This document shows positions 4,545-62,012 of a DNA stretch of 64,000 bases, one piece after another. This DNA is from an uncultured Chloroflexia bacterium. GTDB taxonomy: Bacteria > Chloroflexota > Limnocylindria > Limnocylindrales > CSP1-4. Both the position numbers and the translations under genes were made by a program. Position 1 is the stretch's first letter, and every line of letters starts with the position of its first letter. The notes beneath the pieces are model-generated. The model ran no database searches and was not told where the DNA came from. It saw only the letters and a program-made list of their open reading frames with translations. Location of the stretch: NCBI GenBank assembly GCA_963755285.1, contig CAVWJB010000005.1, positions 94,433 to 158,432 on the forward strand, written 5' to 3'.

Positions 4545-5215
4545 TCAGGGCGATGGGCTCGAACCCGACGATCCGGGACCACTCGCGCTCGGCTCGGGCG
4601 GTTCGGTCGGTGTCGGCTCGGGCGGTGCCGTCGGCTGGCACAGCGGCCGCGCCTCCAGCGTCGGGTCGGCCGCGCAGGCGTCGCTGAGCTCGCGTCCCCA
4701 GTTCGGTGGCTCGAGGAAGACGGTCCGGTAGGCGGCGTCGATCTCGGCCTGGCTGCCGCAGACGCCGATCGCCTTCTCCGGATGGTCGATGACGTCGACG
4801 ACCGCCCGCTCGCAGGCCGACGTCGCCCGGGAGGCCGGGTCGTCGGCGGTCGGAACGCTCGGGCCTGGCTCGCCGAGCTGCGCGGCCGTCGAGAACGTGA
4901 GATAGCCGATGACCGTGCCGAGGACCACGAGGATCGTGACCCCGAGCGCCTGACCCGCCCGGTAGCGGGTGGAACGTTGGACCGGCTCGGGCGTCGGCTT
5001 GGCGGCGACGAGGGCGGACGGCGCGAGCGAGAGGCCGCGGGGTTTGGCCCGCGGCAGTGGGCGGGCGAGGATTGGGCCGTCGGCCGCAGTGGCACGACCG
5101 TCGAAGGCTCGACGGGGATCGCGTCCAGCGCCGTGAAGTCGAAGCCGCACGAGGGGCAGAACCGCGACGATTCGGGCCGGCCCGTGCCACACCTCGGGCA
5201 GAACGCAGCGTCCAG
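4545..5215 (-). pseudogene. double zinc-ribbon (CPRCG...CPSCG) membrane protein interrupted by a frameshift. The N-terminal zinc ribbon (about 5215-5100) is in one frame; the TM helix and ectodomain (about 5100-4545) are in another.
   Basis: Minus-strand translation from 5215 gives ILDAAFCPRCGTGRPESSRFCPSCGFDFTALDAIPVEPST with GAGGAGG 4-6 nt upstream but no ATG/GTG/TTG (only CTG/ATC). The 375-aa ORF frame carries RSTRYRAGQALGVTILVVLGTVIGYLTFS (TM) followed by a non-repetitive ectodomain. That long ORF as listed is impossible as one CDS because it runs through tRNA-Leu. Confidence 0.45.
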
Positions 5216-5236
5216 GATGCCTCCTCGTGTCCCGGC

Positions 5237-5323
5237 TGGTGCCGAAGGTGAGATTCGAACTCACACGCCCTTGCGGGCAGCGGAGTTTAAGTCCGCCGCG
5301 TCTGCCGGTTCCGCCACTTCGGC
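5237..5323 (-). tRNA. tRNA-Leu (anticodon TAA), type II, 87 nt, CCA encoded
   Basis: Revcomp: GCCGAAGTGGCGGAACCGGCAGACGCGGCGGACTTAAACTCCGCTGCCCGCAAGGGCGTGTGAGTTCGAATCTCACCTTCGGCACCA. Anticodon stem GCGGA/TCCGC, loop CTTAAAC, long variable arm, GTTCGAATC T-loop. Confidence 0.85.
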
Positions 5324-5721
5324 CCGCGCCAAGCGTAGCCCCAGGACGATACGGTGGGCTGCAACTCTTGGTCAGTGCGTCGACGACACCAGCTCGCCCA
5401 CGAGTCCCGGTCCCGGGCGGATGTCTGACCGGGGCTCTGCTGCTCGGAGGTGGACGCGTCCGCTTCCGACGGCTCGAGACGGCCGGCTGAGAGGCGAACG
5501 TTCGCAGCCTGAGGTACTGGAACCCGAGCGCCGCCATGACACGCCGCACTGCCCGGGGCAGGTGCTCGGCCTCGCTGGCCCGATCATCGTCGGCTCGTCG
5601 AGATCGTCGGAGACGCCAGGAAGAAGGTCTTCGCGGTCTGACTCGTAGATGGGAACCCGATACCGGTAGCATGAGTCGAGCGTGAGACCGCCCGATCGTA
5701 GCGGCATGAGAGGAGTGGTGG

Positions 5722-6678: not shown

Positions 6679-6693
6679 TTTGTGCTCAAAGTG

Positions 6694-6769
6694 TGGAGGC
6701 GACGAGCGGATTCGAACCGCTGAATAGAGGTTTTGCAGACCTCCCCCTTAACCACTTGGGTACGTCGCC
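6694..6769 (-). tRNA. tRNA-Cys (GCA), 76 nt, CCA encoded
   Basis: Revcomp: GGCGACGTACCCAAGTGGTTAAGGGGGAGGTCTGCAAAACCTCTATTCAGCGGTTCGAATCCGCTCGTCGCCTCCA; anticodon loop CTGCAAA. Confidence 0.85.
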
Positions 6770-6828
6770 CCGAGCGGCACCACCGGAAGGGGTCCGGCCG
6801 GTGCCACGATCGCCAGTCTACGAGGTCG

Positions 6829-6899
6829 TTGCCCCTCGAGGATTCGAACCTCGGTTAACGGATCCAAAGTCCGCTGTCCTACCACTGGACGAAGGGGCA
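6829..6899 (-). tRNA. tRNA-Gln (TTG) candidate, 71 nt, U1:A72 first pair, 3' CCA not encoded
   Basis: Revcomp: TGCCCCTTCGTCCAGTGGTAGGACAGCGGACTTTGGATCCGTTAACCGAGGTTCGAATCCTCGAGGGGCAA. Anticodon arm GCGGA-CTTTGGA-TCCGT (anticodon UUG) closely resembles the Bacillus tRNA-Gln arm. U1:A72 is a GlnRS identity feature. Confidence 0.6.
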
Positions 6900-6954
6900 C
6901 CGGGCGAGTCGCCGGCGGCAGCCGGCCGGCCCGACCGGGCGTCGGACGAGAAAA

Positions 6955-7030
6955 TGGAGCGGAAGACGGGACTCGAACCCGCGACCCTCACCTTGGCAAG
7001 GTGATGCTCTACCAACTGAGCCACTTCCGC
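6955..7030 (-). tRNA. tRNA-Gly (GCC), 76 nt, CCA encoded
   Basis: Revcomp: GCGGAAGTGGCTCAGTTGGTAGAGCATCACCTTGCCAAGGTGAGGGTCGCGGGTTCGAGTCCCGTCTTCCGCTCCA. Confidence 0.85.
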
Positions 7031-7052
7031 TCGAGAAACCGGACCACCGATG

Positions 7053-7129
7053 TGGTGCCGAGAGCCAGGATCGAACTGGCGACACCGCGATTTTCAGTCG
7101 CGTGCTCTACCAACTGAGCTATCTCGGCC
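7053..7129 (-). tRNA. tRNA-Phe (GAA), 77 nt, CCA encoded
   Basis: Revcomp: GGCCGAGATAGCTCAGTTGGTAGAGCACGCGACTGAAAATCGCGGTGTCGCCAGTTCGATCCTGGCTCTCGGCACCA. Confidence 0.85.
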
Positions 7130-7235
7130 CGATGGCCTGACCAGGCTGGCCGCCCGTCGGCGAGCCGGAGAATACCACGGGCCTCGAACGGCCTTCAACC
7201 GAGCCGACCCTGGCGACCGCGCCGGCGGGATTGGA

Positions 7236-8959: not shown

Positions 8960-10237
8960 TCAGATGCCCGGCCGAGCCTCGACCCGACCCGCGGCCACCG
9001 CTTCGGTCAGCGCCGCATGGTCGCGCTCGACCTGGTCGCCGTAGCGCGCGGCGAACTCGACGATCGCCCGGTCGAACGAGGCGCCCCGGCCCACATAGCC
9101 GGCGATCGCCAGCGGGTCGCCCGTCCGGGCATGGGCCCGGGCGAGCGCCCAGGCGCACAGCGAGCCCTGGTGGGCGAGGCTGGTCAGGGTCATCGCGGTC
9201 GGATCGCCCTTGCCCTTCATGTTCCACAGCTGGCGGAGGTAGTAGTGACGTCCTGACTCCGGGCCCTCCGACCAGCCGAGGAAGAGGTCGCTCGACGATT
9301 GCGTGCGACGCTGCCCGACCACGACCCGCTCGCCGTGGTTCGCCTGGACCGCAGCGCCCGCATACGGCTCGAGCACCGACGCGTTGGCTTCCTTGATCTG
9401 GAGGACGAGCGGGTCTCCGGCACCGTGGTCGCGGCCCTCGAACAGGGCCACCCAGCAGCGCGTCCCGACGCTGCCGACGCCGACGGTCTTGCGGGCGACG
9501 TCCATCAGCCGGAACCGACCGAGCAGCTCGCGTCGATCCTCGCCCAGCGAATCCAGGTAGCCGGCGAGCAGGCCGACCGCCTCGTGCGGCTCGTGCTCGG
9601 TGTTGGCGAGGCGGATCATGAGCGGCGGCTCCTCGACGAACTCGCGCCGGGTTCCCTTCAGCCGGGTCATCCGGGCGGCTGCCTCCACGTGGGTCCGCCG
9701 ACGGGCCTTCTCGGCGTTCCGACGGACGTCTCGCCGATAGCGCGCCGGGAAGTGGCTGAGGACATCGCCCATCTCGATCCGCGACGTCCAGAGATCGAGG
9801 ATCCGGAGCTGCCCGAACCGGCGCATCCGTTCGCGGTAGGTGCGGACGGCCGTCTCGACGATCCCGGCCCGGATCGATGGCGAGCTCGTCCGGAGGCGGA
9901 CCACCAGGTCGAGGCTGACCGCGAGCCGCTTGAGGTCCCACTCCCACGGAGCCGGCAGCGTCTCGTCGAAGTCGTTGACGTCGAAGACCAGGGTGCGCCC
10001 GGGTGTGGCGAACTCGCCGAAGTTGCTGACGTGCGCGTCCCCGCAGGCCTGGACCCGCAGCCCGCTGATCGGGGTCTCGGCCAGGTCCATCGCCATCAGG
10101 CCGGCCGAGCCGCGGAAGAAGGCAAACGGCGACGGGAGCATCCGTCCGTAGCGGATCGGGATGAGCTCGGGAAGCCGCGTGCATTCGAGGCGGCGATGAC
10201 GTCGATCGGATCGACCCGGTCGGATCGTGGCGCCCAC
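8960..10237 (-). CDS. DUF2252 domain-containing protein
   Basis: 425-aa ORF with the characteristic DUF2252 blocks (SPFAFFRGSA, ...WNMKGKGDP...). Start not verified. Confidence 0.7.
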   Translation of the reverse strand: MGATIRPGRSDRRHRRLECTRLPELIPIRYGRMLPSPFAFFRGSAGLMAMDLAETPISGLRVQACGDAHVSNFGEFATPGRTLVFDVNDFDETLPAPWEWDLKRLAVSLDLVVRLRTSSPSIRAGIVETAVRTYRERMRRFGQLRILDLWTSRIEMGDVLSHFPARYRRDVRRNAEKARRRTHVEAAARMTRLKGTRREFVEEPPLMIRLANTEHEPHEAVGLLAGYLDSLGEDRRELLGRFRLMDVARKTVGVGSVGTRCWVALFEGRDHGAGDPLVLQIKEANASVLEPYAGAAVQANHGERVVVGQRRTQSSSDLFLGWSEGPESGRHYYLRQLWNMKGKGDPTAMTLTSLAHQGSLCAWALARAHARTGDPLAIAGYVGRGASFDRAIVEFAARYGDQVERDHAALTEAVAAGRVEARPGI

Positions 10238-10371: not shown

Positions 10372-10448
10372 TGGTGGGCGGTGAGGGACTCGAACCCCCG
10401 ACATCCTCGGTGTAAGCGAGGCGCTCTGACCAGCTGAGCTAACCGCCC
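10372..10448 (-). tRNA. tRNA-Val (TAC), 77 nt, CCA encoded
   Basis: Revcomp: GGGCGGTTAGCTCAGCTGGTCAGAGCGCCTCGCTTACACCGAGGATGTCGGGGGTTCGAGTCCCTCACCGCCCACCA. Confidence 0.85.
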
Positions 10449-10529
10449 GGGCACCGGCAGGATAGCGGCTTCACGGATTGAATCGAAACGGCGGTCCGGG
10501 TCGGACCGCCGTCGGTGTCAGCGAGGGAG

Positions 10530-10614
10530 TGGTGCCCAGGCCGGGACTTGAACCCGGATGAGTTGCCTCATACGCCCCTCAAACGTACGCGTATACCAAT
10601 TCCGCCACCTGGGC
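10530..10614 (-). tRNA. tRNA-Leu (GAG), type II, 85 nt, CCA encoded
   Basis: Revcomp: GCCCAGGTGGCGGAATTGGTATACGCGTACGTTTGAGGGGCGTATGAGGCAACTCATCCGGGTTCAAGTCCCGGCCTGGGCACCA. Anticodon arm TACGT-TTGAGGG-GCGTA, G37. Confidence 0.8.
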
Positions 10615-10645
10615 ATCGAGCGCCATCGGGAGACTCGGTCGAGGG

Positions 10646-10732
10646 TGGTACCGAGGAAGGGATTTGAACCCATACGCCCTTGCGGACACTAGCTCCTGAA
10701 GCTAGCGCGTCTACCGATTCCGCCACCTCGGC
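10646..10732 (-). tRNA. tRNA-Leu (CAG), type II, 87 nt, CCA encoded
   Basis: Revcomp: GCCGAGGTGGCGGAATCGGTAGACGCGCTAGCTTCAGGAGCTAGTGTCCGCAAGGGCGTATGGGTTCAAATCCCTTCCTCGGTACCA. Confidence 0.85.
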
Positions 10733-12953: not shown

Positions 12954-14599
12954 GGACGCTCGGACCTCGGGCTTGAAGGGCCGTCGGATGGTAGCACAGG
13001 CTCGAGCAGGGAGCGCCCGACCACGGCCGGCCAGGCCGGCAACCCGGCCAGCTCGAGGATCGTCGGGGTGACGTCGGCCAGGACCCCGTTCCGGAGCCGC
13101 CGGCCGACGACCGCCCGCCCGACCGCGACGACCGGAACCGGGTTGAGCGAGTGAGCCGTGACCGGCGCGCCGGACTCGTCGCGCAGCTCGTCGGCGTTGC
13201 CGTGATCGGCGGTGATGAGGAGGACCGCGCCGCTCGAGGCCGGATCGTCGCGATCGACGGCCTCCACGGCGGTCACGACCCTGGCCAGGCAGGCGTCGAT
13301 CGTGGCCAGTGCCTGGATCGTCGCGTCCCAGACACCGGTGTGGCCGACCATGTCCGAGTTGGCGAAGTTGGCGACGATGAAGTCGTACTCGCCGGCGGCG
13401 ATCGCCCGGACCAGCTCGTCGGTCACCCCGACCGCGCTCATCTCGGGACGGAGGTCGTAGGTGGCGACCTGTGGGCTCGGCACGAGCAAGCGGTCCTCGC
13501 CGGGCCACGGCGCCTCACGACCGCCGTTGAAGAAGTAGGTCACGTGGGCGTACTTCTCGGTCTCGGCCAGATGGAGCTGGCGCCAGCCGGCCCGCGACAC
13601 CGCCTCGGCCAGCGACGGCACCTCCTCGGGCGGGAAGGCGACGAGGACCGGGAGCCCGGCCTCGTACTCGGTCATCGTCACGACGAGCAGGTCGCGTGGC
13701 GGCGGCCGTCCGTCCGGCCCGGTCCGGTCGAAGCCGTCGAACGGATCGTCGACCAGGGCGTGGATGAGCTGACGAGCGCGATCCGCCCGGAAGTTGGCGT
13801 GGATGATCGGATCACCGTCGCGAACCCGGCCGTCGACCCCGTCGATGACCGTCGGCAGGATGAACTCGTCGTTCTCGCCGCGGGCGTAGCCGCTCGTCAC
13901 GGCCGCGAGCGGGCTCGGCGCGCGCTCCCCCGCCCCGTTGACGATCGCCTGGTAGCCGCGCGCGGTCCGCTCCCAGCGGTGGTCGCGATCCATCGCGTAG
14001 TAGCGGCCGCCGACGGTCGCGATCCGGGCGTCGGGGTGGGCCCGGGCGAGGCGCTCCTCGAGGTCGACGATGAAGCCATCGGCCGATCGCGGCGGCGTGT
14101 CCCGGCCGTCGAGCAGCGCGTGGACCCGGACCTCGGGCACGCCCTGCCTCGCGGCGAGCTCGGCGAGCCCGACCAGGTGCCGATCGTGGGCGTGGACGCC
14201 GCCGGGCCCGATCAGCCCGACGACATGGAGCCGGCCATCCGGTCGGGCCGCGCGGGCGCAGGCCGCGAGCAGCGCCGGGCGCTCGAAGAACGAGCCGTCG
14301 GCGAGCGCCGCGTCGATCCGGGGCAGGTCCTGGAGGACGGGCTGGCCCGTCCCAAGGTTGAGGTGGCCGACCTCGGAGTTGCCCATCTGGCCGGGCGGCA
14401 GGCCGACGTCGCCCTCCGACGCCCCGAGGATCGCGTGCGGCCAGCGCTCGAGCAGCCCGCGCCAGACGGGCATCGGCGCAGCCGCGATCGCATCCGCCGC
14501 CGGGTTGCGCCCGATCCCGAACCCGTCGAGGACGACGAGCACGATCGGGCGCGGCCGGCGATGGGACTCGGCGCCGTCCCCGGTCGGTCGGTCGGTCAT
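12950..14599 (-). CDS. gpmI: 2,3-bisphosphoglycerate-independent phosphoglycerate mutase
   Basis: 549 aa from ATG 14599 (MTDRPTGDG...). PIVLVVLDGFGIG, NSEVGHLNLGTG and ADHGN metal-binding motifs; the upstream 146 codons of the listed ORF are antisense junk. Confidence 0.85.
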   Translation of the reverse strand: MTDRPTGDGAESHRRPRPIVLVVLDGFGIGRNPAADAIAAAPMPVWRGLLERWPHAILGASEGDVGLPPGQMGNSEVGHLNLGTGQPVLQDLPRIDAALADGSFFERPALLAACARAARPDGRLHVVGLIGPGGVHAHDRHLVGLAELAARQGVPEVRVHALLDGRDTPPRSADGFIVDLEERLARAHPDARIATVGGRYYAMDRDHRWERTARGYQAIVNGAGERAPSPLAAVTSGYARGENDEFILPTVIDGVDGRVRDGDPIIHANFRADRARQLIHALVDDPFDGFDRTGPDGRPPPRDLLVVTMTEYEAGLPVLVAFPPEEVPSLAEAVSRAGWRQLHLAETEKYAHVTYFFNGGREAPWPGEDRLLVPSPQVATYDLRPEMSAVGVTDELVRAIAAGEYDFIVANFANSDMVGHTGVWDATIQALATIDACLARVVTAVEAVDRDDPASSGAVLLITADHGNADELRDESGAPVTAHSLNPVPVVAVGRAVVGRRLRNGVLADVTPTILELAGLPAWPAVVGRSLLEPVLPSDGPSSPRSERP

Positions 14600-15408
14600 C
14601 CGGGATCGCCTGCCCGCGCGACCGCGGTCAGGCCGGCCCGGGCGACGATCCCGGCCATCTCGTCGGGCTTGAGCGAGGCGCCGCCGACGAGGGCGCCGTC
14701 GATCCCGGGCTCGGCCAGGAACTCGCCGATCACCCCGGCCGTCACGCTCCCGCCGTAGAGGACCGGCACCTCGTGGCCGAGCTCGGTCAGGCCGGTCTCG
14801 TCGATTGCCGCCCGGATCGTGTCGGCCATCGAGGCGGCGTCGGCCCCGGTGGCGTTGCGGCCGGTGCCGATCGCCCAGACCGGCTCGTAGGCGATGACGA
14901 CACCGCCCGTGGTCAGGTCCGCGGCGGCATCGCCGATCGTCGCGTCGCCGAACGCCGTGAGGATGCCGTGGACCTGGGCCCGGACGACCGCGTCGGCCCG
15001 GCCCGCTTCGCGCTCGGCAAGCTGCTCGCCGACGCACACGATCGGCCGCAGCCCGGCCTCGATCGCCCGGCGCAGCTTGCGACCGATGAGCTCGTCCGTC
15101 TCGCCGGCGTCGCGCCGCCGCTCGGAGTGGCCGACGATGACCCAGGTCGCCAGCCCGTCGAGCATCGGCGCGCTGATCTCGCCCGTGAAGGCACCGGTCA
15201 GCTCGTGATGGACGTTCTGCGCGCCGACCGCGACGCCGCTCCCGGCGAGCGCGTCGCGAACCGCCGCGAGGCAGACGAACGGGGGGCAGATCACCCGCTC
15301 GACCGGACCCTCGACCACGGTCCGGGCGGCGATCGTCGCGGCCAGTGACCCGGCGTCGGCCGGTGTCGTGTGCATCTTCCAGTTGGCGGCGATGACGACG
15401 GGTCTCAC
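14596..15408 (-). CDS. tpiA: triose-phosphate isomerase
   Basis: GTG start 15408 (V/MRPVVIAANWKMHTT...). Motifs ANWKMH, VIVGHSERR, AYEPVWAIGTG. Sits directly downstream of whiA with no gap/pgk in between. Confidence 0.85.
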   Translation of the reverse strand: MRPVVIAANWKMHTTPADAGSLAATIAARTVVEGPVERVICPPFVCLAAVRDALAGSGVAVGAQNVHHELTGAFTGEISAPMLDGLATWVIVGHSERRRDAGETDELIGRKLRRAIEAGLRPIVCVGEQLAEREAGRADAVVRAQVHGILTAFGDATIGDAAADLTTGGVVIAYEPVWAIGTGRNATGADAASMADTIRAAIDETGLTELGHEVPVLYGGSVTAGVIGEFLAEPGIDGALVGGASLKPDEMAGIVARAGLTAVARAGDPG

Positions 15409-15415
15409 CCGGGAA

Positions 15416-16255
15416 TCATGCCAGAGCCGGGCCGTCGTCTTCGTGGGCGGCGAGCCGCTCGAGTCGCTCGAGCGCGCGCTGGACCGTCGAGCGGTGCAGC
15501 CCGAGCCGCTCGGCGAGCTCGCCGAAGGTCGCCTCGGGCGTCTCGCGCCGGGCCGCGGCGACGAGCCGGACCACCGGCGGCTGCTCGGCCAGCCGGCCAT
15601 CGGCCTCGAGCCGGTCGATCGCCCGGAGCTGGCGGGCGGCGGCCACGACCGCCCGCTGGAGGTTGGCCGACTCGGCGTTGATGACCCGGTTGATGTCGCC
15701 GCGCATCGCGCGGGCGACCTGGCGGCTCTCGAGCTCGAGGATCGCCGAGCTTGCGCCGACGCGCCGGAGGAACGTGCCGATCGTGTCGGCGTTCTTCCAG
15801 GTCACGACTCCCCGGCCGCGCCGGATCCGCCACGACGCGGGCATCCCGAGGCCCTCGAGGCGCGCCGCCAGGACCGGCGCTTCGGCCGGCGGCACGACGA
15901 ACTCGAGGTGCGCCCGGCCGGAGGCGAGGCTCAGCGAGCCGCGGGCGAGGAACCGGCCGCGGAGCCAGGCGATCCGGCAGTGATCGGCGGCCAGGTCCCA
16001 GTCGAATGGCTCGCCGCCGGCTTCGGGCTCGGTCACCCGGACGTGCTTCGTCCGGCGCCGTCCGCCGAGCAGCCGGCCGGCGTCGGTCGGCTCGCGCCCG
16101 AGGCGGACGGCGAGCCGGGCCACGGCGGCCTCGCGAGTGGCCAGGGCGGGTCCGAGCCCGGCCGACTCGGCGAGCCGATCGCACGCTCGCTGGGGGACGA
16201 TCGACGCGAGCTCCGTCCGGATCGCGCTGACCAGGTCCCGGTCGGCGTCGCTCAT
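15416..16255 (-). CDS. whiA: DNA-binding protein WhiA
   Basis: 279 aa from ATG 16255 (MSDADRDLVSAIRTELA...). LAGLIDADG-like repeats and a C-terminal HTH; follows rapZ-yvcK. Confidence 0.8.
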   Translation of the reverse strand: MSDADRDLVSAIRTELASIVPQRACDRLAESAGLGPALATREAAVARLAVRLGREPTDAGRLLGGRRRTKHVRVTEPEAGGEPFDWDLAADHCRIAWLRGRFLARGSLSLASGRAHLEFVVPPAEAPVLAARLEGLGMPASWRIRRGRGVVTWKNADTIGTFLRRVGASSAILELESRQVARAMRGDINRVINAESANLQRAVVAAARQLRAIDRLEADGRLAEQPPVVRLVAAARRETPEATFGELAERLGLHRSTVQRALERLERLAAHEDDGPALA

Positions 16256-16292
16256 CGCATCCGCCGGATGCCGGGCCCGGAGCGAGCGGCGA

Positions 16293-17657
16293 TCACGCGC
16301 TGCGGACGGCCGTGGCGCCCCGCCGTCGAGCGGAGCCGTCGCGCTCGGCGATCCGGATGATGGCCGCGGCGAGCTTGGCGGCGTCGTGATGATTCGGCTC
16401 GGCCGGGTCGGCGAGATCGTCGAGGACGAGCCGCGGCGGGTGCTCGACGTTCGGCGGCCAGCGCAGCCGGATCGCATCGCCGACCGGCGCGCTGCGCTCG
16501 GCTGCGTCGCCGCTCGTCGTCCGGTTGTTGGCCAGGACGATGTCGACGATCCCGCTCGCGGCGTGCCGCTCGAGGGCCTCGACGTGGTCGGCCAGGTCGA
16601 AGCCGGTCGTCTCGCCCGGCTGGGTGGCCACGTTGCAGACGTAGATCCGCGGCGCGTTCGAGGCGGCGACAGCCGCCCGGATCTCGGGCAGGAGGAGGCT
16701 CGGCAGGACGCTCGTGAACAGGCTGCCCGGGCCGATCACGAGCAGATCCGCCTCGGCGATCGCGGCCACCGCGTCCTCCGCCGCGTGGACCCCCTCCGGC
16801 GAGAGCCAGACTCGTTCGATCCCGCTCGTCGCCGCGATCCGGGACTGGCCGACGACCTCGGTTCCGTCGTGGAGCTCGGCATGCAGGACGAGCGGGGTCG
16901 CCGAGGCGGGCACGACCTGGCCGCGGACGGCCAGGACCCGGTTCATCTGCCGGACGCCCTCCTCGAAGTCGCCGCCCTCGACCGCGGTCATCGCCGCGAT
17001 CAGGAGGTTGCCGATCGCGTGACCACCGAGCCCCTCGGGCTCCTCCTCGCCCGGGAACCGGTACTGGAGCAGCTCGCCCATGAGTGGCTCGGCATCGGCG
17101 AGTGCGACGATGCAGTTCCGGATGTCGCCGACCGGCGGCAGCCCGAGCTGGGTCCGGAGCTTCCCGGACGAGCCGCCGTCGTCGGCCACGGTCACGACCG
17201 CGGTCAGGTTGCTCGTGTGCTCCTTGAGACCGCGCAGCAGGGTCGACAGCCCGGTCCCGCCGCCGAGCGCGACCACCTTCGGCCCGCGGGCGAGGAAGCG
17301 CTTCTGGTAGATGACCTCGACCAGCGGGCGATCCTCGTCGTCCGACCGGAACGGATCCATCAGGACCCGCATCACCTTCCACGAGGCGAAGGCGAAGACG
17401 GCCACGCCGGCCGAGGCCAGGATCAGCGCCCGGAGCCCGTACGGCAGCGACTGGAGGGTGACCGCGGAGACGATGGTCTGGATCGGCTCGCCGAGCTCGA
17501 CGTCGCGATAGACCTGGCGGAGGACGAAGGCGAGGCCGAAGGCGAGGCCGAGCTCGCCGAGGAAGACGACCACCAGCCAGCGCTTGACGCCGATCCCCGG
17601 GGTCAGCCAGCGCCGGATCTCGTGGGCCGTCGTGCGGCGGCGCGGTCGGTCGGCCAT
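16293..17657 (-). CDS. yvcK: gluconeogenesis factor YvcK / CofD-like (UPF0052) with an N-terminal membrane anchor
   Basis: 454 aa; KVVALGGGTGLSTLLRGLK..., VVTVADDGGSSG; about 100-aa N-terminal TM extension. Confidence 0.8.
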   Translation of the reverse strand: MADRPRRRTTAHEIRRWLTPGIGVKRWLVVVFLGELGLAFGLAFVLRQVYRDVELGEPIQTIVSAVTLQSLPYGLRALILASAGVAVFAFASWKVMRVLMDPFRSDDEDRPLVEVIYQKRFLARGPKVVALGGGTGLSTLLRGLKEHTSNLTAVVTVADDGGSSGKLRTQLGLPPVGDIRNCIVALADAEPLMGELLQYRFPGEEEPEGLGGHAIGNLLIAAMTAVEGGDFEEGVRQMNRVLAVRGQVVPASATPLVLHAELHDGTEVVGQSRIAATSGIERVWLSPEGVHAAEDAVAAIAEADLLVIGPGSLFTSVLPSLLLPEIRAAVAASNAPRIYVCNVATQPGETTGFDLADHVEALERHAASGIVDIVLANNRTTSGDAAERSAPVGDAIRLRWPPNVEHPPRLVLDDLADPAEPNHHDAAKLAAAIIRIAERDGSARRRGATAVRSA

Positions 17658-17660
17658 CGG

Positions 17661-18584
17661 TCAGCTCCGCTCGAGCTCGCGGTGGAAGACCGCGACGGTT
17701 CCGAAGTCCTGCTCGCGGAGCCAGGCCGCGAGCGCCTCGCCGATCGCGATCGAGCGGTGGTAGCCCCCGGTGCAGCCGATCCCGATCGTCAGCCGGGTCT
17801 TGCCCTCGCCGACGTAGGCCGGGACGACGAACGCCAGGAACTCGTGGAGGAAGGCGAGGAACGCCTCGGTGGTCGGCTGGCCGAGCACGAACTCGCGGAC
17901 CTCCTCGGTCAGGCCCGACAGCGCCCGCAGCTCGTCGACGTAGTACGGGTTCTGCATGAACCGGACGTCGAACACGAGATCGGCCTCGAGCGGCAGCCCG
18001 TACTTGAAGCCGAAGCTGATGATCTGGATCGCCAGCCGGTCCGGGTCGGGCGAGTCGGCCAGGTTGGCGAAGAGCTTCTCGCGCAGCTCGCGCAGCGGCA
18101 GGTCGCTCGTGTCGATGACGACGTCCGCGTCGTCGCGGATCGGCTCGAGCCGTCGCCGCTCCTCGGCGATCGAGCTGGCGATCCCGCGCTGATCGGCGAG
18201 CGGATGGCGGTGGCGCGTCTCCGAGAACCGCCGGATGAGGATCTCGTCGCGGGCCTCGAGGAAGAACACCTGGGGTCGGATCCCGCGGCCCTCGAGCGCG
18301 CCGCGCATCGCGGCGAGGGCGACGACGACGTCGCCGGCCCGGACGTCGAGCACGATCGCGGTCTTCTCGAACCGCTCGCGATCCTCCGACACGAGCTCGG
18401 CCAGCTCCGGCAGGAGCTCGCCCGGCAGGTTGTCGACGCAGATGTAGCCGAGGTCCTCGAACAGCTTCGTCGCAGCCGTCTTGCCGGCCCCCGACAGGCC
18501 GCTCAGGATCACGACGTGCTGGCTGGCGGGCGGGCCGGCGGCGGCGGCCGGGTCGGATGGATCGAGGGATCCGGGGCCACTCAT
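17661..18584 (-). CDS. rapZ: RNase adapter protein RapZ (YvcJ)
   Basis: 307 aa; Walker A VVILSGLSGAGKTAA..., C-terminal ...IGCTGGYHRS... Confidence 0.85.
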   Translation of the reverse strand: MSGPGSLDPSDPAAAAGPPASQHVVILSGLSGAGKTAATKLFEDLGYICVDNLPGELLPELAELVSEDRERFEKTAIVLDVRAGDVVVALAAMRGALEGRGIRPQVFFLEARDEILIRRFSETRHRHPLADQRGIASSIAEERRRLEPIRDDADVVIDTSDLPLRELREKLFANLADSPDPDRLAIQIISFGFKYGLPLEADLVFDVRFMQNPYYVDELRALSGLTEEVREFVLGQPTTEAFLAFLHEFLAFVVPAYVGEGKTRLTIGIGCTGGYHRSIAIGEALAAWLREQDFGTVAVFHRELERS

Positions 18585-18626
18585 CGTGGGCAGTCTACGC
18601 TGCCGCCGCGAGCGAACCGGGAAGCG

Positions 18627-19448
18627 TCACTTGCCGGTGCGAGCGATGAACCAGGTCGTCAGCTCGAACAGGATGTACATCGTGCCGCCGAGCACGAACG
18701 GGCTGACCAGGTCGCCGCCGGGCGTGGCGATGGCCGAGAAGATCGCGATCCCGAGGATCACGTAGCGGCGCGACGCGCGCAGGCGCTGCGAGGTCAGGAT
18801 GTTCACCCGCGACAGCGCGAACAGGATGATCGGGAACTCCATCGTGAGGCCGAAGGCCAGGAACAGGGTCGTGACGAAGTCGAAGTACGAGCCGGCCGTG
18901 ATGAGCGGCTGGAGGTCCGCCGTCTGGAAGCTCAGCAGGAATCCCGCGGCGTAGGGCAGGATCACGTAGGCGATGGCGCAGCCGAGCGCGAAGAAGAACA
19001 GCGCGAGCGGCACCCAGGGCCGGATCAGACGCCGCTCGTTCGAGGTGAGCCCGGGGGCGATGAACCGCCAGCCCTGGTAGAGGATGACCGGCATCGCCAG
19101 GATCACGCCGACGACGAGCGAGATCTTCATCCGGATGAAGAACGGGTCGCCGAGGCCGGTGAAGAACAGCGGCGAGCTGCTCGGGATCGGCGCCTTCAGG
19201 AAGGCGATGATCTGGTCGCCGGCGGCAAAGCCGACCGTCGACGCCACGGCGACCGCCAGGATGATCTTGAACAGCCGTGAGCGGAGCTCGCCGAGATGGT
19301 CGACGAGGCTCATCACCGCCTCGCCGTCGGCGGGCTCGGTCGGTGGCACGGTGGGCGTCGGGGGCGTGGCCGGGACGGTCGTCAGCGCCGAGCTGGCTCC
19401 CGTCCCCGGGTCCGGGGCAAGCGCGTCCGGCGTCGGTTCGTCGGCCAT
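18627..19448 (-). CDS. tatC: twin-arginine translocase subunit TatC
   Basis: 273 aa; six TM helices; LVDHLGELRSRLFK..., ...ATPGGDLVSPF... Confidence 0.85.
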   Translation of the reverse strand: MADEPTPDALAPDPGTGASSALTTVPATPPTPTVPPTEPADGEAVMSLVDHLGELRSRLFKIILAVAVASTVGFAAGDQIIAFLKAPIPSSSPLFFTGLGDPFFIRMKISLVVGVILAMPVILYQGWRFIAPGLTSNERRLIRPWVPLALFFFALGCAIAYVILPYAAGFLLSFQTADLQPLITAGSYFDFVTTLFLAFGLTMEFPIILFALSRVNILTSQRLRASRRYVILGIAIFSAIATPGGDLVSPFVLGGTMYILFELTTWFIARTGK

Positions 19449-19481
19449 GACGATCGTGCTCCGCGGGCCCGCTGAGGCGGG

Positions 19482-19922
19482 CTAGGAGACGTTCTCGGAG
19501 TCGGGCTGGTCGGCGGGCGACGCGGCGACCGGGGCGGCCGCATCCTCGACGGGCGGAGCGACCGGCGCCGACTCCACGACGGCCTGGGCCACGGGCGGCG
19601 GCGCCGCGACAGGAGCCGCGGGCGGCGCCGCGACCGGCGCATCGGCGGCCACTGGCGCCGGGGTGGCGGCAACCGCGGCGACGACCGGCGCCGCAGCGAC
19701 CGGGGCGGCGGGCGCGGCCGGTGGCTGGCTGGCGGCCGCCTCATCCGGCGGCAACGGCGAGGTGTCGACCTTGACCGCGTCCTGGATGTCCGACGATGCC
19801 TTGCGGAACTCGCGCAGGCTCTTGCCGAGGGCGGAGCCGACGTCGGGCAGCCGGCCCGGCCCCAGGATGAGCAGCGCGATCACGAGGATGATGACGAGTT
19901 CGAGCGGACCAGGGGTGGGCAT
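19482..19922 (-). CDS. tatA: Sec-independent translocase TatA/E-family protein with a long A/P/V-rich C-terminal tail
   Basis: 146 aa; N-terminal TM plus amphipathic helix LGPGRLPDVGSALGKSLREFRKA, then about 90 aa of low complexity. Confidence 0.75.
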   Translation of the reverse strand: MPTPGPLELVIILVIALLILGPGRLPDVGSALGKSLREFRKASSDIQDAVKVDTSPLPPDEAAASQPPAAPAAPVAAAPVVAAVAATPAPVAADAPVAAPPAAPVAAPPPVAQAVVESAPVAPPVEDAAAPVAASPADQPDSENVS

Positions 19923-19967
19923 CGGTAGGTGCTGCTCCTTACGTCCGAGACGCCCTGAATTGGGCGC

Positions 19968-20840
19968 CTACAGTAGCACAGGGAGGCGTTTGGCCCAGTC
20001 GCGGGCGGCCTCGGCGAGGGCCTCTCCGGGGTCGGCCGCGACGCCTCTGTCCGGGGTTCCCGCCGCGGCGCCGGAGATGCCGCGCGAGACGTTGACGACC
20101 AGTCCTCCAGCGGGCGATCGGCCTGCCGGCGGAGCGGTCGCCGGGCCGTCGCGGAGGACCGGCTCGACCTCGCCACCCTGGGCCCCGACCCCCGGCACCA
20201 GGAACGCCAGCCCGGGCGCCGTGGCCCGGATCCGGGCCATCTCCTCGGGGGCAGTGGCGCCCACCACGAGGCCGACCGTGCCGCCCGGACCCCAGTCTCC
20301 AGCGCGCCGAGCGACCCGCAGGTAGAGCGGCTCGGCCGGAGCGTCGTCCGCGCTCGATACGTGGACGTCCTGGAGCTCGCCGGCACCCGGGTTCGACGTC
20401 CGGCACAGGACGTAGGCGAACCGATCCGCTCGCTCGATGAGCGGCGCGATCGCCTCCGATCCGAGGTACGGGTTGACGGTGATCGCGTCGGCGCCGAGCC
20501 GGTCGAACAGGGCCACCGCCTGGCGCGCCGCGGTCGAGCCGATGTCGGCGCGCTTGGCGTCGGCGATGAACGGCACGTCGTCCGGGACCGAGCCGCGGAG
20601 ACGCTCGAGGGCCGCGATCCCGTCGGGGCCGAACGCCTCGAAGAAGGCCAGGTTCGCCTTGACGGCCGTCACCGATGACAGGGACGATTCGAGGATCAAC
20701 CGGCAGAACGCCTCGATCCCCTGAACGTCGGGCGCGAAGCCCGGCGGGAGACCGGCGGGATCCGGGTCGAGGCCGACGCACAGGACCGTCCCGGTCGCGG
20801 CAGTGCGGGCCGCCAGCCGTTCGAGGTAGCCGCCGATCAC
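19968..20840 (-). CDS. pyrF: orotidine-5'-phosphate decarboxylase (type 2)
   Basis: 290 aa from GTG 20840, which overlaps the stop of the upstream gene (GTGA). Motifs VLCVGLDPDP, KANLAFFEA, DAKRADIGSTA. The listed 414-aa ORF extends through antisense sequence. Confidence 0.8.
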   Translation of the reverse strand: MIGGYLERLAARTAATGTVLCVGLDPDPAGLPPGFAPDVQGIEAFCRLILESSLSSVTAVKANLAFFEAFGPDGIAALERLRGSVPDDVPFIADAKRADIGSTAARQAVALFDRLGADAITVNPYLGSEAIAPLIERADRFAYVLCRTSNPGAGELQDVHVSSADDAPAEPLYLRVARRAGDWGPGGTVGLVVGATAPEEMARIRATAPGLAFLVPGVGAQGGEVEPVLRDGPATAPPAGRSPAGGLVVNVSRGISGAAAGTPDRGVAADPGEALAEAARDWAKRLPVLL

Positions 20841-23853: not shown

Positions 23854-23904
23854 GCTGTCAGGATGCCACGACAGCCTGCACGCGGGCTTATCGCGGGGAT
23901 CCGA

Positions 23905-25113: not shown

Positions 25114-26499
25114 GGGCGCGGGCCTGGCGCGGTCCCCGTCCCGGTGTCCGGGCCAGGAACTCGTCCTCGCCGACGCCCCACAGGCTCGCCCGTCGCGCGA
25201 AGTTCTGCTGGACGACGACCCGCAGGAGCGTCCTGGAGACCGTCACCGCGGTGAACATCGACGTGAGCACGCCGATGATCAGGACGAGCGCGAAGCCCTT
25301 GATCGTCGGGCGAGCCGAACGCGTACAGGATGCCGGCGGTGATCAGGCTCGACACGTTCGAGTCGAGGATCGAGTTCCAGGCCCGGGCGAAGCCCGCTTC
25401 GACGGCGCTCGGCAGGGTCTTGCCGAGGCGAAGCTCCTCCTTGGTCCGCTCGAAGATCAGGATGTTCGCATCGACCGCCATGCCGACCGACAGGACGAAG
25501 CCGGCGATGCCGGCCAGGGTCAGCGTGACGGGGATCAGCCGGAAGACCGCCAGCACGACGATGGCGTAGTACAGGAGGGCGAAGTCGGCGACCAGCCCGG
25601 GCAGCCGATAGTAGATGAGCATGAAGCTGAACACGAGGCCGATCCCGATCACGGCCGCGATCAGGCTCGACTGGAGGAACTCCGCCCCGAGCGTGGCGCT
25701 GATCTGGGTGTCCTGGACCGCCTGGACCGGGAACGGCAGCGAGCCGTAGCGGAGGACGGTCACCAGCTCGTTCATCTGGGTCACCGCGTCCGGGCCCGAA
25801 CCCGTCGTGATGATCCCGGTCCCGCCGGTGATCGCCGAGTTGATGCTCGGGGCCGAGATGACCGTCCCGTCGAGCACGATCGCGAAGAAGTTCCCGACGT
25901 TGGCGCTCGTGTAGTCGGCGAACTTCTTGGCCGCGTCGCTCTTCAGGGCGAACGCGACGGCCGGCCGGCCGTTCTCGTCGGTCGACGGGTTGGCGCTCTC
26001 GAGCTGGTCGCCGGTGAACAGCGGGACGAGCGACTCATCCTTCGGGAGCGGCTGGCCGTCGATGATGCCGGTGGCGCTGCCGGTCGTCGACGCTGTTCCG
26101 TACTTGTCGGGTGGCAGCGGCACGAACGTCAGCTGACCGGTCGCGCCCGACGAGCCGTTCGATCTCCTCCCGGTCGGTCGCGCCGGGCAGCTCGACGACG
26201 ACCCGGTCGTTGCCGTGGACGACGACCACCGGCTCGGACACGCCGGTCGAGTTCACCCGTCGCTCGATGATGTCGCGGATGGTGGCCATCGCCGCCGCGT
26301 CGGGTGACTTGCCGTCGACCGGGATCGCCTGGTACTCGACCCGGAGGCCGCCCTGCAGGTCGAGCCCCAGCTTCGTCTCGAGGACCCGCGGGCCGGCCGC
26401 CGGGTCGCCGAAGGTGGGCAGCTTGAGACCCGGCCAGAAGTCGATCGCGAGCGCGAGCAGACCGATGACCACGATGAGGATGGGGACGAAGCGACGCAT
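25106..26499 (-). pseudogene. secD: protein translocase subunit SecD carrying two single-base frameshifts (near 26142 and at the GGG run 25308-25310). Most likely assembly indels in a functional gene.
   Basis: The N-terminal frame (26499...) ends ...EIERLVG| and the middle frame resumes |ATGQLTFVPLPPDKYGT...; the middle frame leaves SecD after ...ILYAFGS|. The +1 frame continues IKGFALVLIIGVLTSMFTAVTVSRTLL... to a TGA 4 nt after the secF GTG. Deleting one C from ccc restores GSPTIKGFA. Confidence 0.8.
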
Positions 26500-26545
26500 C
26501 GCGGCGGACTATACCAGCGTCCGGGCGGGCGGGCCGGAACGGGGT

Positions 26546-29266: not shown

Positions 29267-29349
29267 CGTCGGTCGCTCATGGCTGGCGATCGTCGGCGAT
29301 CGGATCGTCGATCGCCATGACCCGATAGTCGCCGCGGCCGGACCCCCGC

Positions 29350-50142: not shown

Positions 50143-50195
50143 CGCGGTGTCCGCTTCGCTCGGCCCGGTCCAGGTTCAGGCTGGTGCTCATCTGG

Positions 50196-51784: not shown

Positions 51785-52810
51785 CGGCGCACCGCGATCA
51801 CGTCCGCGATGTTGCCGAGGCCCACCTGCGCCTCGGCCCGGGCCAGGAGTCGGGCCAGCGTCGACAGGCCCGGCATTTGGCGGGGTCGACCTGACGCGAC
51901 GCCCACAGGCGACACGTCCGCGGTCGCGGCTGCGCCCCGGCGGGAGATCGAGCCGAATGTCTGGCGATACGCGCGTCTCGCCATTGCGCGCATGGTCAGC
52001 TCCATCGTTCCGGGGCTGTGCCACGGGTCGTAGGTTTCGATTGAGAGCACTCGGAACCCCTCTTCGGTTAGGAGTTGACGGAGGTGTCGTGGCTCATAGA
52101 AGGTCACGTGTTGCGGGCAGCGAAGGCCCCACCAGGATTGACGTCCGAGCCGCCCGTCGAGCGAGCCGATGTTCGGCATCTGGAGGTGGAGGACGCCTCC
52201 TCGGGTTGAGTGCGTCGCGGATCCCCTGCAGCACCGCGCGCGGGTCGTAGAGGTGCTCCAGCACGTGGTAGGCGCCGACCGCATCGTGGCTGCCGCCCGG
52301 GATCTTGAAGTCGTCGAACCCGATGACGTGAAGGTCGAGACCGTGGCGATCGCGTGCCACTCGAACGGCCGAGCCATGGACCTCACTGCCCGCGACGTCC
52401 CATCCTCGAGCCTGCATTACGGCGAGGAAGTTGCCATCGCCGCAGCCAATCTCGAACAGTCGGTGGCCCGGAGCGACCGCGGTCAATCGGGCGGCCCGAT
52501 AGGCGAAGGTCGGGTTGGCCAGCTGCTGCGGCAGTGCCTCCTGGGCGTGTTCATACGGCTCGCGGTAGAGGGCGTCATAGAACGAGGCGAGATCCCGCGC
52601 GGCGACGCGAGGCGACAATCGGACGAGCCCGCATTCTCGGCAGGCCACATAGCCATACGGCGGCTGCCGGAACAGCCGTCTGGAGCGTGCAGACCCGCAG
52701 AGCACGCACGTCGGGACGGGCTCCGTCTCGCTGGTTCGGGGCGGATCCTCGACTTGATCCACGGGCTCGATCGCGCTGATCGGCACGCCCGCTTGCGGAG
52801 CGAGGGTCAT
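51781..52810 (-). pseudogene. zinc-ribbon SAM-dependent sugar C-methyltransferase-like enzyme (TylC3 / Methyltransf_13-type), frameshifted near 52185-52200
   Basis: N-terminal frame: CVLCGSARSRRLFRQPPYGYVACRECGLVRL (C-x2-C...C-x2-C), motif I LFEIGCGDGNF, ...AYHVLEHLYDPRAVLQGIRDALNPR|. C-terminal frame: |GGVLHLQMPNIGSLDGRLGRQSWWG..HVTFYEPRHLRQLLTEEGFRVL... Start ATG 52810 overlaps the rfbF stop (ATGA). Confidence 0.55.
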
Positions 52811-59645: not shown

Positions 59646-59939
59646 ACGATCCCCTGCAGCGTACCGACCGGCCGCGGCCCCATTCCACTGCTCCAGGTGC
59701 GGCGGTGAGGGGACGCGTCAGGCGGCGGCGAGGTGCCAGAACGGGTCGCGGATCCGGCCGCCAGGTCGGTCGCACCGAGTCCGACACCCAGGTTCCTGGA
59801 TCGCCGAGGGCCTTCCGCGCCGAGGTCTTCGGCGGGTCGGCGGCGAGCCGAAACCGCAACGTTGGCGGCTTTCAATGGAGATCCCCCTCCGAAGTCCCGG
59901 TGCGCCGCCGAACTCCATCGCCGACCACGGTCGGTGTCC

Positions 59940-60040
59940 GGCCACGCCTTCTTCGTAGAGGGTAAGCATAGGCAACGAGTAAATAGGTAGGCTGGGCTAC
60001 GGTGTTAAGAAATGGCTAGTACTTTACGCTCAATCGGAGG
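59940..60040. promoter_or_regulatory. AT-rich island (taagcataggcaacgagtaaataggtaggctgggctacggtgttaagaaatggctagtactttacgct) at the 3' end of the DUF4012 gene and 370 bp upstream of wzc. Candidate promoter or regulatory region for the glycan operon.
   Basis: Stands out sharply against the surrounding 70%+ GC. The 59646-60015 intergenic stretch has no credible ORF. Confidence 0.3.
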
Positions 60041-62012
60041 TCGGTCTGGAACGTCGTGACCAGCGTTGCCGTGTCGCCCGAAACCGTAAGACCGTCCGTT
60101 GTGGACTTGATCCGGGAGCCGGACGGGGCGTGGATCGTCAGGCTCAGCGGCCCGGGCAAGAGCCCCGGCTGTTTCTGAATCAGCAGGCGATACAGGCGGT
60201 CCCCTTGGTCGGCGACGGCGGCCCCTGAGGTCGTCCAAACGTAGCGCAGGCTCGTCTGGCCAGGAGGCGCCAGGAGGTAGGTTCCGACGACGACGCGACC
60301 GGCCTCGTTGGCAACAACGGCGGGCGCCGTGACCTCCGCGGACTGCCCGCCTGAGACAGCGTCGATCGAGCTTCCTTCGGGCGCCAGGAGCCGGAAGTAG
60401 ATCCCGAGATTACGCAGGTGCTTGTTTCCTGGAAGCTCACGATAGGGTGTGCCGGCCGGGGTCATGATTCCGTTGTCCCACGTGATGTCCAAGGTGTGAA
60501 CCGCGTTGCCCGCGGCGTCGAGCGCGACGTCGAGTACCAGGCTCCGGGTGGTGACTGCGTTCAGCTTCGAGGACGGTAAGACGTTCGAGTCGACGGCATA
60601 GACATAGTCGCCGGGCTCGTCTATCACCCCTCCTGCGAAGCCGCTCGTGACGGCAAGCGCCTGGTCGTCCGGGTTCTTGAACCACGCGAGCAACAGGTGC
60701 TGGCGCTGGAGCGTGTCCGCCGCGCTGGCCAGCCCCGTCCACTGCTTCGACGGGAGGGCGAGCAATCGATCGAATATCTGGTCGGCGAACGCCGACAGAA
60801 ACGCCTTGCGGGTCGCTCCGGGCTTGGCCACACGGGTCAGCTGGAGCGTCTTGAGCGTGGTCTCCCCCGTTGCGATCGTGGCCTGGTACGCGGGCACGTC
60901 GATCGGTCCGGTGATCTTCAGCAGCTCGTCGATCGTGTAGGTCGTGATCCCGAGGACGCCGTCGATCTGCTTGTCGCCTGATTCGTTGGTGTACAGCCGA
61001 AGAGCATCCTGCGCGCTCGTGGGAAAGTCGGGTGACCAATTGGCGGCGATCAGCTGCCATGGCTGCTTCGTCGAACCGAGCAGGTAGGTCGACAGGTCGG
61101 CCGGCGGTTTGATGAAGGGGTAGTCCGGCGGCAGGTCGAGGTCGAAGACGTCGTGAAAGCTCCGATCGGTGACCCGGCCGCGGTCAAACGTGACGACGCC
61201 ATAGCTACCGAGGAAGCCGCCGGTCGGACGAAGCTCCGCTGGGTCCTGGGTCAGGACGAGGTAGCGCCGAGGACCGTCCCATCCGAGCATCGCCGGAAGT
61301 CGTCCGCTGAGTTCCACGTACGAGTCGAGCAGGGGGCCATACCGGGCCACGCGTTCGATGATCGCATCGCGTGCGCCGTCGACCGGCCCGGCCAGTCCGT
61401 CCGGTACGGTCGCCAGCTTCGCCTGGGCGCGAGCAAGCGCGGCCTGGGCGGCAAGGGCTCGTGTCACGCGATGTGACCATCAACTCGACCAACTGAGCCA
61501 TCGCCGAGCCACTCGCCGGGGTCCGTCGCCCGGGCCTCCTTGATCTCCACGTATCGGACCCCCATCGCGAGACCGTCGTCAGCAGCATCAAGCAGATCGC
61601 GGGAGGCCGCGACGACCGCTTCTGCACCCGTGACCTGGTCCGCGGTCGGGGGCAGCACCCGAGCCAGCCCGAGCAGCGGGTCAGTGGAGAGGAGATCCGA
61701 GACGTGATCCAGCCGGGCACGGGCGGCCCGCAGGTCCCGATCGAGACTTCCGATCATCGGCCGATCGATGCCCAGACCGGCGGTCTGAACACGCGAAGCC
61801 ATCGTTTCCAGGTCCGTTCGAAGGCTCCGAGCCTCGTCGAGCGCTGGCAGATACCGGACGACGGCGAGTGCGGCGCTTGCCGTGGCCAGGACGAGCAGGA
61901 TCACACCGGCTCCGAGCACGACGTATCGGCGGCGCCTCGGGCTCCTGCGCCGACGCTGCCGGCCGATGGGTTTGGCGAACAGCCGCGCCAGTCTCGGTTC
62001 CGGATCGGTCAT
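60016..62012 (-). pseudogene. DUF4012 domain-containing protein (N-terminal TM anchor), split by a one-base frame change at 61464-61470
   Basis: N-terminal ORF (182 aa) has a TM (YVVLGAGVILLVLATASAALAVV) and ends ...GSVGRVDGHIA*. The 483-aa ORF starts 3 nt away in another frame (V/MTRALAAQAALARAQAKLATVPDG...). Both halves match the about 600-aa DUF4012 architecture; family assignment from memory. Confidence 0.58.

Follow-up and report, generated by a model that had tools for sequence, protein, structure and literature searches.

Conserved genes with shifted reading frames are familiar from two settings. Pseudogene-rich genomes occur in bacteria that are restricted to a host or have specialised recently, such as Mycobacterium leprae and Leifsonia xyli subsp. 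xyli, where many conserved genes are frameshifted and some carry several lesions. Residual insertions and deletions (indels) in metagenome assemblies made from Nanopore reads alone are a well-known phenomenon as well. The long-read Microflora Danica catalogue (MFD-LR) was built from R10.4.1 Nanopore reads only, with metaFlye and one round of Medaka, and its authors acknowledge residual Nanopore-associated errors in lower-coverage metagenome-assembled genomes (MAGs) (PMC12313526). Here we analyse a 64,000-nt stretch of contig CAVWJB010000005.1 (assembly GCA_963755285.1, positions 94,433 to 158,432) from an uncultured Chloroflexia bacterium, referred to throughout as the window, in which the frames of 12 genes are broken at 19 sites.

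The window resembles the indel-bearing MAGs of the Microflora Danica catalogue (PMC12313526) closely. Its lesions are single-base, split open reading frames (ORFs) and are private to one assembly; short-read assemblies of the clade lack them, they are spread patchily and at a density that differs greatly from contig to contig, and sibling MAGs show the same defect. In contrast to the correlates named by the catalogue authors, the errors in the window are tied neither to long homopolymers nor to low GC: the genome has 68-70% GC, the affected runs are at most 3 nt long, and insertions outnumber deletions. The missing homopolymer bias and the high GC are what is untypical here. The membership of the window itself in the catalogue is presumed from its relatives. 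The likeness to the M. leprae and L. xyli subsp. xyli type is confined to the many conserved genes that are frameshifted, some of them more than once. Unlike genomes of that type, the window has lesions that are not shared by descent; its broken genes are free of nonsense mutations and show no sign of relaxed selection, large deletions or inserted elements were not seen within them, and the breaks track sequencing technology. We therefore consider the frame breaks to be residual consensus errors of a Nanopore-only type of metagenome assembly and not biology, with a probability of about 0.9 on the evidence of comparative sequence analysis.

The window and its relatives

The window has a GC content of 67-74%, and nearly all of its genes lie on the minus strand. 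A SecF scan of species-representative genomes returned relatives exclusively among Chloroflexota MAGs labelled "Ca. Limnocylindrales" or "uncultured Chloroflexia". Eleven of the 19 relative loci belong to the "MFD..." series (Microflora Danica), whose contigs follow the naming pattern contig_N and reach lengths of 1.4 Mb; the remaining 8 have contig names of short-read style (k141_, k127_, NODE_, contig-100_, c_0000...). Loci are cited below by their L numbers where they have to be told apart.

The proteins encoded in the window are registered under an NCBI/ENA contig of 419,550 bp. The closest relative, the sister, is the 416,491-bp contig ERZ25039457 contig_76416 (CAVOVX010000008.1, MFD00031.bin.2.172). 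Its DNA identity to the window is 95.0% over 7.2-18.2 kb, 94.5% over 13.9-26.5 kb (13909-26552) and 96.5% over the exopolysaccharide (EPS) cluster at 35.2-56.4 kb (35180-56432). Beyond the first loci, the sister is represented by L020, L021 and L025, and further siblings by L022, L023 (ERZ25039478 contig_30208), L024 and L028 (ERZ25039520 contig_65745). Synteny of the JGI contigs L026 and L027 is too divergent for them to serve as comparators of the zinc-ribbon gene.

Reading frames of twelve genes are broken

Three independent lines of evidence were used to establish that the frames are broken: a plot of GC content at third codon positions (GC3) in each frame, the coordinates of Pfam domains, and the proteins of relatives mapped to the frames of the window. 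Frames were called from the GC3 of per-ORF segments, as GC1, GC2 and GC3 in fixed windows were too noisy, and the reference ORFs used in tblastn were filtered by GC3, as off-frame ORFs of GC-rich DNA swamp an unfiltered set. Each indel was assigned by majority vote in multi-genome alignments. Assignment from GC3 phase worked at isolated sites and was ambiguous near gene boundaries and where indels are closely spaced. The result is 14 insertions and 4 deletions of one base each and one deficit of 13 nt, patchily distributed, with about one lesion in every 2.7 kb of sequence that can be compared:

~5059 (5055..5065), minus strand: zinc-ribbon/transmembrane (TM) protein gene (~5215 to 4548); 13 nt missing in a repetitive P/A-rich linker, frame shifted
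10180..10182, minus strand: DUF2252 gene; 1-nt deletion, GG -> G, first 45 codons out of frame
25308..25310, minus strand: secD; 1-nt insertion, GG -> GGG on the plus strand, an extra base relative to L005
26144..26146 (26146), minus strand: secD; 1-nt insertion, CC -> CCC, judged against 10 genomes
32346, minus strand: extracytoplasmic function (ECF) sigma factor gene; 1-nt insertion (T), not in L005, L001 or L018
32360, minus strand: ECF sigma factor gene; another 1-nt insertion (C), 14 nt away from that at 32346
33210, plus strand: UvrD-type helicase gene; 1-nt insertion, junction 33204-33212, 10 genomes including short-read MAGs
33383, plus strand: UvrD-type helicase gene; 1-nt insertion, junction 33376-33387, 10 genomes
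33852, plus strand: UvrD-type helicase gene; 1-nt insertion, junction 33835-33872, 7 genomes
40434, minus strand: gene of a 411-aa GT4 glycosyltransferase (GT4-411); 1-nt deletion near the C-terminus, extra G in 4/4 siblings
41198, minus strand: GT4-411; 1-nt insertion, A -> AA, not in the sister or L023
41735, minus strand: gene of a 388-aa GT4 glycosyltransferase (GT4-388); 1-nt insertion between GAGCTC and GAG
42941, minus strand: Wzy-like polymerase gene; 1-nt deletion, TT -> T, extra T in L020, L023 and L024
44158, minus strand: Wzy-like polymerase gene; 1-nt insertion near the N-terminus, absent from 4/4 siblings
50157, minus strand: polysaccharide flippase gene (Polysacc_synt); 1-nt insertion, first 16 codons lost (493 vs 509 aa)
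52201..52202, minus strand: methyltransferase gene; 1-nt insertion, absent from 3/3 siblings
59111, minus strand: gene of a Wzc-like chain-length regulator/tyrosine kinase; 1-nt deletion, TT -> T, extra T in 3/3 siblings
61462, minus strand: DUF4012 protein gene; 1-nt insertion, sister gene intact (664 aa)
61516, minus strand: DUF4012 protein gene; second 1-nt insertion, 54 nt upstream

The GC3 plot switches frame on the same strand in secD (three frames), the sigma gene, the helicase gene (four segments), both GT4 genes, and the Wzy, methyltransferase, wzc and DUF4012 genes. Pfam domains continue in order from one frame to the next. In secD, SecD_1st is followed by P1_head with SecD_SecF_C 14-141 and then by the tail; the helicase carries UvrD-helicase 1-98, a gap, UvrD-helicase 182-268 and then UvrD_C; GT4-411 has Glyco_transf_4 2-79 and then 114-168, and the methyltransferase Methyltransf_23 21-111 and then 106-163. 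Sigma70_r2 and r4 of the sigma factor lie in separate frames, Wzz of wzc is in one frame with GNVR and the ATPase in another, and Zn_Ribbon_1 is in frame 1 with the TM/ectodomain part of the same gene in frame 2.

Intact proteins of relatives map to consecutive frames of the window, and the junctions recur across many independent genomes, short-read MAGs among them. Support for the junctions from 25.30 to 33.85 kb is as follows:

25.30 kb: 17-18 supporting genomes
26.14 kb: 10 supporting genomes
32.35 kb: 3 supporting genomes
33.21 kb: 8-10 supporting genomes
33.38 kb: 8-10 supporting genomes
33.85 kb: 7 supporting genomes

At the remaining sites, the comparators are the sister and further siblings. 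The extra G of the DUF2252 gene is present in both L025 and L028, whose 451-aa proteins map to frame -2 of the window with residues 1-45 and to frame -1 with residues 46-451. L022, L023 and L024 have intact 388-aa genes without the extra base of GT4-388. The flippase insertion at 50157 is found neither in the sister, where L020 and L021 overlap, nor in L022 or L023, and L022 has a further insertion of its own at the Wzy site 42941. For both DUF4012 sites, the sister is the sole comparator. The zinc-ribbon gene is one continuous ORF in L028 and aligns with a 13-nt gap at ~5059, L028 being both the sole comparator and itself laden with errors.

A preliminary description of this DNA, made from the sequence and a list of its ORFs, had already called frame breaks in named genes, and GC3, Pfam and the proteins of relatives bear out all eleven. 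Most of its positions are accurate to 0-10 nt: in secD, the helicase, both GT4 genes, the methyltransferase and DUF4012 they deviate by a few bases at most, and the GGG run of secD at 25308-25310 was exact. Elsewhere, the break was real and its details were not. The sigma gene carries two +1 insertions (32346 and 32360) in place of a single lesion in a ccc run, the Wzy deletion lies at 42941 and not in the CCCC run 42961-42964, and the wzc break is at 59111 and not at ~59150, so that positions in these three genes were 20-40 nt off. Joining AAWG to RSAIAPDQRRW, as proposed for Wzy, does restore the frame but misassigns about 7 residues, the intact sequence being AAWGGVRSLP(N/A)QRRW. In the zinc-ribbon gene, the supposed single-base lesion at 5100-5140 is replaced by the 13-nt deficit seen against L028 alone, 50-80 nt away. 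The list was also incomplete: 8/19 lesions were missing from it, including those in DUF2252 (10180), the flippase (50157), GT4-411 (40434) and Wzy (44158) and the second lesions of sigma and DUF4012 (61516).

The breaks are private and follow the sequencing technology

For 17 of the 19 lesions, between 2 and 18 other genomes contradict the window. No lesion is shared with the sister, 94.5-96.5% identical to the window, or with any other sibling, except that the position 41735 coincides with a lesion of the sister in which the inserted length differs. Every broken gene except Wzc is intact in at least one relative, and in four assemblies Wzc is disrupted at four different positions.

The relatives from the same series are damaged in their turn. 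The sister has about 12 private lesions (for example 34991, 35264, 37179, 39772, 39804, 40048, 40463, 40552, 41569, 43601, 47771 and 58390), which cut one GT4 gene into three pieces and also disrupt Wzy and wzc. L022, L023, L024 and L028 are broken in other genes than the window or at other sites. In L023, we counted 56 private 1-nt indels in 22.6 kb, and in L028 100 in 18.6 kb, where tatC, rapZ, cofD, tpiA, lemA and an M48 peptidase gene are shredded; whiA is also among the genes disrupted by private indels in these two siblings. Indel density along sibling contigs varies more than 20-fold, with 1 indel of L023 in 37.5-45 kb and 47 in 50-60 kb.

Breaks backed by at least three other genomes were then counted by technology within the same syntenic 20-kb neighbourhood:

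MFD long-read loci: 28 breaks in 231 kb, 8/11 loci affected
short-read-style loci: 0 breaks in 110 kb
window: 6 breaks in 21 kb

If the long-read rate applied to the short-read loci, they should contain about 13 breaks (Poisson P ~2e-6). The helicase gene illustrates the difference: it occupies one frame in every short-read MAG and is disrupted at differing places in the window and five MFD MAGs. Thus, most lesions are private to one assembly, and within this gene neighbourhood the breaks are confined to long-read assemblies, as an artefact would have it. The size of the indels points the same way. They measure one nucleotide, +1 or -1, at 18/19 sites of the window, and in the comparison with the sister over the EPS cluster (35.2-56.4 kb) 17/18 events are of 1 nt and one is of 6 nt.

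Repair restores full-length genes

Correcting the assigned indels yields full-length proteins. With both bases removed, SecD aligns over 466/466 aa at 99.1% identity to the sister and 78% to the short-read MAG L009, and repair of the 25308 site, supported by 17-18 genomes, gives FGSPTIKGFA exactly as had been proposed. The sigma factor, likewise freed of two bases, becomes a protein of 187 aa that aligns end to end with its relatives, ungapped against L005 and L018 and with one gap against L001, and the repaired helicase matches L009, L001 and L003 along its whole length. Repaired GT4-411 aligns to L023 over 411/411 aa (96.8% identity) and GT4-388 end to end over 388/388 aa (97.9%), the latter with the C-terminus ELTALMTEMVRRPELRRELSAGG that had been predicted for it. 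Wzy with both repairs matches L023 over 490/490 aa (98.8% identity), the flippase aligns over 509/509 aa, the methyltransferase aligns to the sister over 356/356 aa, and DUF4012 without its two insertions does so over 664/664 aa (92.3% identity). Repaired Wzc is a single 551-aa ORF, which is intact in no sibling.

Once their frames are corrected, the nine multi-segment genes run through about 4,000 codons without a single stop codon. The ratio of nonsynonymous to synonymous differences per site (pN/pS) between window and sister is 0.04-0.41 in broken genes (median ~0.20) and 0.03-0.51 in intact genes, so that the two groups are indistinguishable; in secD, it is 0.04, and 37/41 differences fall on codon position 3. 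The relaxed selection and nonsense mutations expected of pseudogenes are thus not seen between window and sister, nor did this comparison reveal any large deletion or inserted element within the broken genes. The genes are almost certainly intact in the organism, as judged from these alignments. The preliminary description had preferred sequencing or assembly error over decay, and this preference is supported by the privacy of the lesions, the technology contrast, pN/pS, the lack of nonsense codons and the outcome of repair.

Sequence context of the lesions

The suggestion that the breaks reflect ambiguous homopolymer lengths did not hold. Short G/C runs do occur at some sites, but no more often than by chance: 7/14 insertions lengthen a run, and the chance expectation is 0.50. 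All affected runs are at most 3 nt long, and the five longest runs of the window (6-7 nt) are free of errors. In three sets of private lesions (56, 100 and 30), no 4-mer, GATC included, is enriched at distances of up to 6 nt after correction for 136 tests. A role of methylation motifs (GATC, CTCGAG) was considered and rejected, as neither is enriched near lesions. Errors are thus not concentrated in homopolymers or methylated motifs, which argues against that mode of error and not against an artefact in general.

One site stands apart. At 41735, the window has +1 and the sister (L020) +2 at the same palindromic GAGCTCGAG sequence, while the sequence is GAGCTC--GAGCAC or a divergent equivalent in the three genomes whose gene is intact. 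The recurrence suggests that the site may be a hotspot of systematic error or a modified site.

Origin of the frame breaks

In the explanation that we favour, the window contig would very probably have been assembled from Nanopore reads alone, as were its Microflora Danica siblings. Assembly from long reads without short-read polishing is documented for these siblings, and for the window we infer it from them. Consensus errors, almost all of them single-base insertions (14) or deletions (4), would have been left behind, and gene callers would then split or truncate about 12 of the roughly 55-60 genes of the window. The patchiness may stem from coverage that is low or uneven, or from several strains having been mixed. 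As neither homopolymers nor 4-mers are enriched, the errors look like stochastic consensus errors rather than context-specific failures of basecalling.

Several observations weigh against this explanation. No individual indel is proven an error, the sequencing technology of the window is presumed from its siblings, and the comparator MAGs are called short-read by their contig names alone. The lesions lack the classical Nanopore signatures, as they are not linked to long homopolymers and no 4-mer such as GATC is enriched near them. The window has 14 insertions to 4 deletions, with an excess in the same direction in the sister, L023 and L028, and an excess of insertions is not known as the usual Nanopore bias. 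The lesions are unevenly spread, with 1 in 7.2-25 kb and 17 in 25-62 kb (chi-square p = 0.003), although siblings that are manifestly erroneous show the same patchiness. Two or three lesions fall in each of several genes, a pattern that is also expected of old pseudogenes; a rough Poisson estimate at ~0.33 lesions per kb predicts about 5 genes with at least two lesions, and 6 were observed. Finally, the 13-nt difference in the zinc-ribbon gene may be a genuine polymorphism.

Repeated lesions in one gene (three in the helicase; two each in secD, sigma, Wzy, GT4-411 and DUF4012) and their clustering in 25-62 kb would also suit genuine mutations, that is, decay or relaxed selection in a perhaps host-restricted lineage, or an EPS cluster in the course of being lost, with true pseudogenes as the outcome. 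EPS clusters are typically variable loci, and the sister is damaged too, in its EPS cluster and helicase. Yet true decay fails because lesions are not shared, nonsense mutations are missing and selection is not relaxed. Nothing but the position 41735 is common to window and sister, and there the inserted length differs; the broken genes hold no nonsense codons, and no large deletion or inserted element was seen in them against the sister; pN/pS is as low in broken as in intact genes, down to 0.04 in secD; breaks are missing from short-read MAGs of the clade; and the indel loads of sibling contigs are incompatible with life. We regard this possibility as very unlikely. Functional frameshifts, whether by programmed ribosomal frameshifting, transcriptional slippage or phase variation of surface-polysaccharide loci, are scarcely credible. 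Genes of the EPS, Wzy, Wzc and glycosyltransferase (GT) type are phase-variable in some bacteria, several lesions of the window fall into such genes, and the length at 41735 differs between assemblies. Programmed or phase-variable frameshifting fails on sequence context and on conservation: neither a repeat tract nor a slippery heptamer was seen at the lesion sites, where runs are at most 3 nt, orthologues lie in one frame and none conserves a shift, housekeeping genes (secD, sigma, helicase) are equally affected, and shifts of +1 and -1 both occur in arbitrary contexts.

An artefact of another kind, systematic and context-specific basecalling errors from miscalled homopolymer lengths or methylated motifs instead of stochastic consensus errors, is less remote and still unlikely. 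Short runs are indeed altered at 25308 (GG -> GGG), 26146 (CC -> CCC), 42941 and 59111 (both TT -> T), and at 41735 two independent assemblies have insertions of different length in the palindrome. Against it, run extension is at the chance level (7/14) in runs of at most 3 nt, with five runs of 6-7 nt error-free, no 4-mer including GATC is enriched near lesions, and apart from 41735 the assemblies err in different places. That a minority of the lesions is real is very unlikely; the best candidate would be 41735, as a hypermutable or heavily modified site, and the other the 13-nt difference in the zinc-ribbon linker. If the 41735 difference were true, it could be a phase switch in a surface-polysaccharide locus or a methylated restriction-modification target that defeats the basecaller.

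Consequences for annotation

If the breaks are residual consensus errors, they have little biological importance, because the genes are almost certainly intact; their weight lies in annotation. About 1 in 5 genes of the window is miscalled as split, truncated or a pseudogene, and the gene calls need correcting. The earlier advice to treat pseudogene calls as provisional and to expect automatic annotation to under-call proteins was correct. Fragments and fusions from the siblings L023 and L028 have entered public protein collections, among them pieces of 189 and 238 aa of a 321-aa GT2 and a fusion of 880 aa. Without frameshift-aware annotation or polishing, Nanopore-only MAGs of this kind would lead to wrong metabolic inferences or claims of 'genome decay'. 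In this GC-rich genome, the residual errors differ from the classical long-homopolymer type and are spread very unevenly along contigs.

Other features of the window

At the far end of the window, beyond the DUF4012 gene, comparison of the two genomes reveals single-base differences from the sister at 62979 and 63875, in genes of tandem LysM-domain proteins (62178-63083 and 63070-63999).

Two clusters of tRNA genes lie on the minus strand, at 6694-7128 (Cys-Gln-Gly-Phe) and 10372-10732 (Val-Leu-Leu). Both are kept in the sister, where the spacers differ by small indels. A tRNA-SeC called by ARAGORN at 23185-23267 (minus strand) falls within the coding sequence of recJ (DHH, DHHA1 and RecJ_OB domains) and is probably a false positive. 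The zinc-ribbon gene starts (5190-5323) directly after tRNA-Leu(taa) and a GAGGAGG ribosome-binding site. No ATG, GTG or TTG stands where a start codon would be expected. Of the possible starts, ATC or CTG is conserved, and the arrangement is the same in L028.

The EPS cluster is closer to that of the sister (96.5%) than are the flanking housekeeping genes (94.5%), and synteny with the sister stops below ~6.6 kb, whereas L028 stays syntenic. This pattern of similarity and synteny hints at recombination or exchange among these lineages. Between uvrC and secD, a segment of 2.8 kb (26552-29340) is without counterpart in nearly all relatives; L010 alone has it, up to 28848. The segment encodes a full-length DUF2339 membrane protein.

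Directly downstream of the ECF sigma gene, at 31235-32203 on the minus strand, a single-pass membrane protein is encoded in the position of an anti-sigma factor. Its ectodomain is a SecD P1 domain (Pfam SecD_1st and SecDF_P1_head), with a motif, GQVTFVPLPPETYGTASTTGSPTGIVDGQPLP, that closely resembles GQLTFVPLPPDKYGTASTTGSATGIIDGQPLP of SecD. The SecD proteins of L001, L018 and L019 also match the 31235-32203 protein, at 45-51% identity, and ORFs of L001 and L018 map both to its gene and to the P1 region of secD. In sequence, the protein looks like a partial duplication of secD that was recruited beside the sigma factor.

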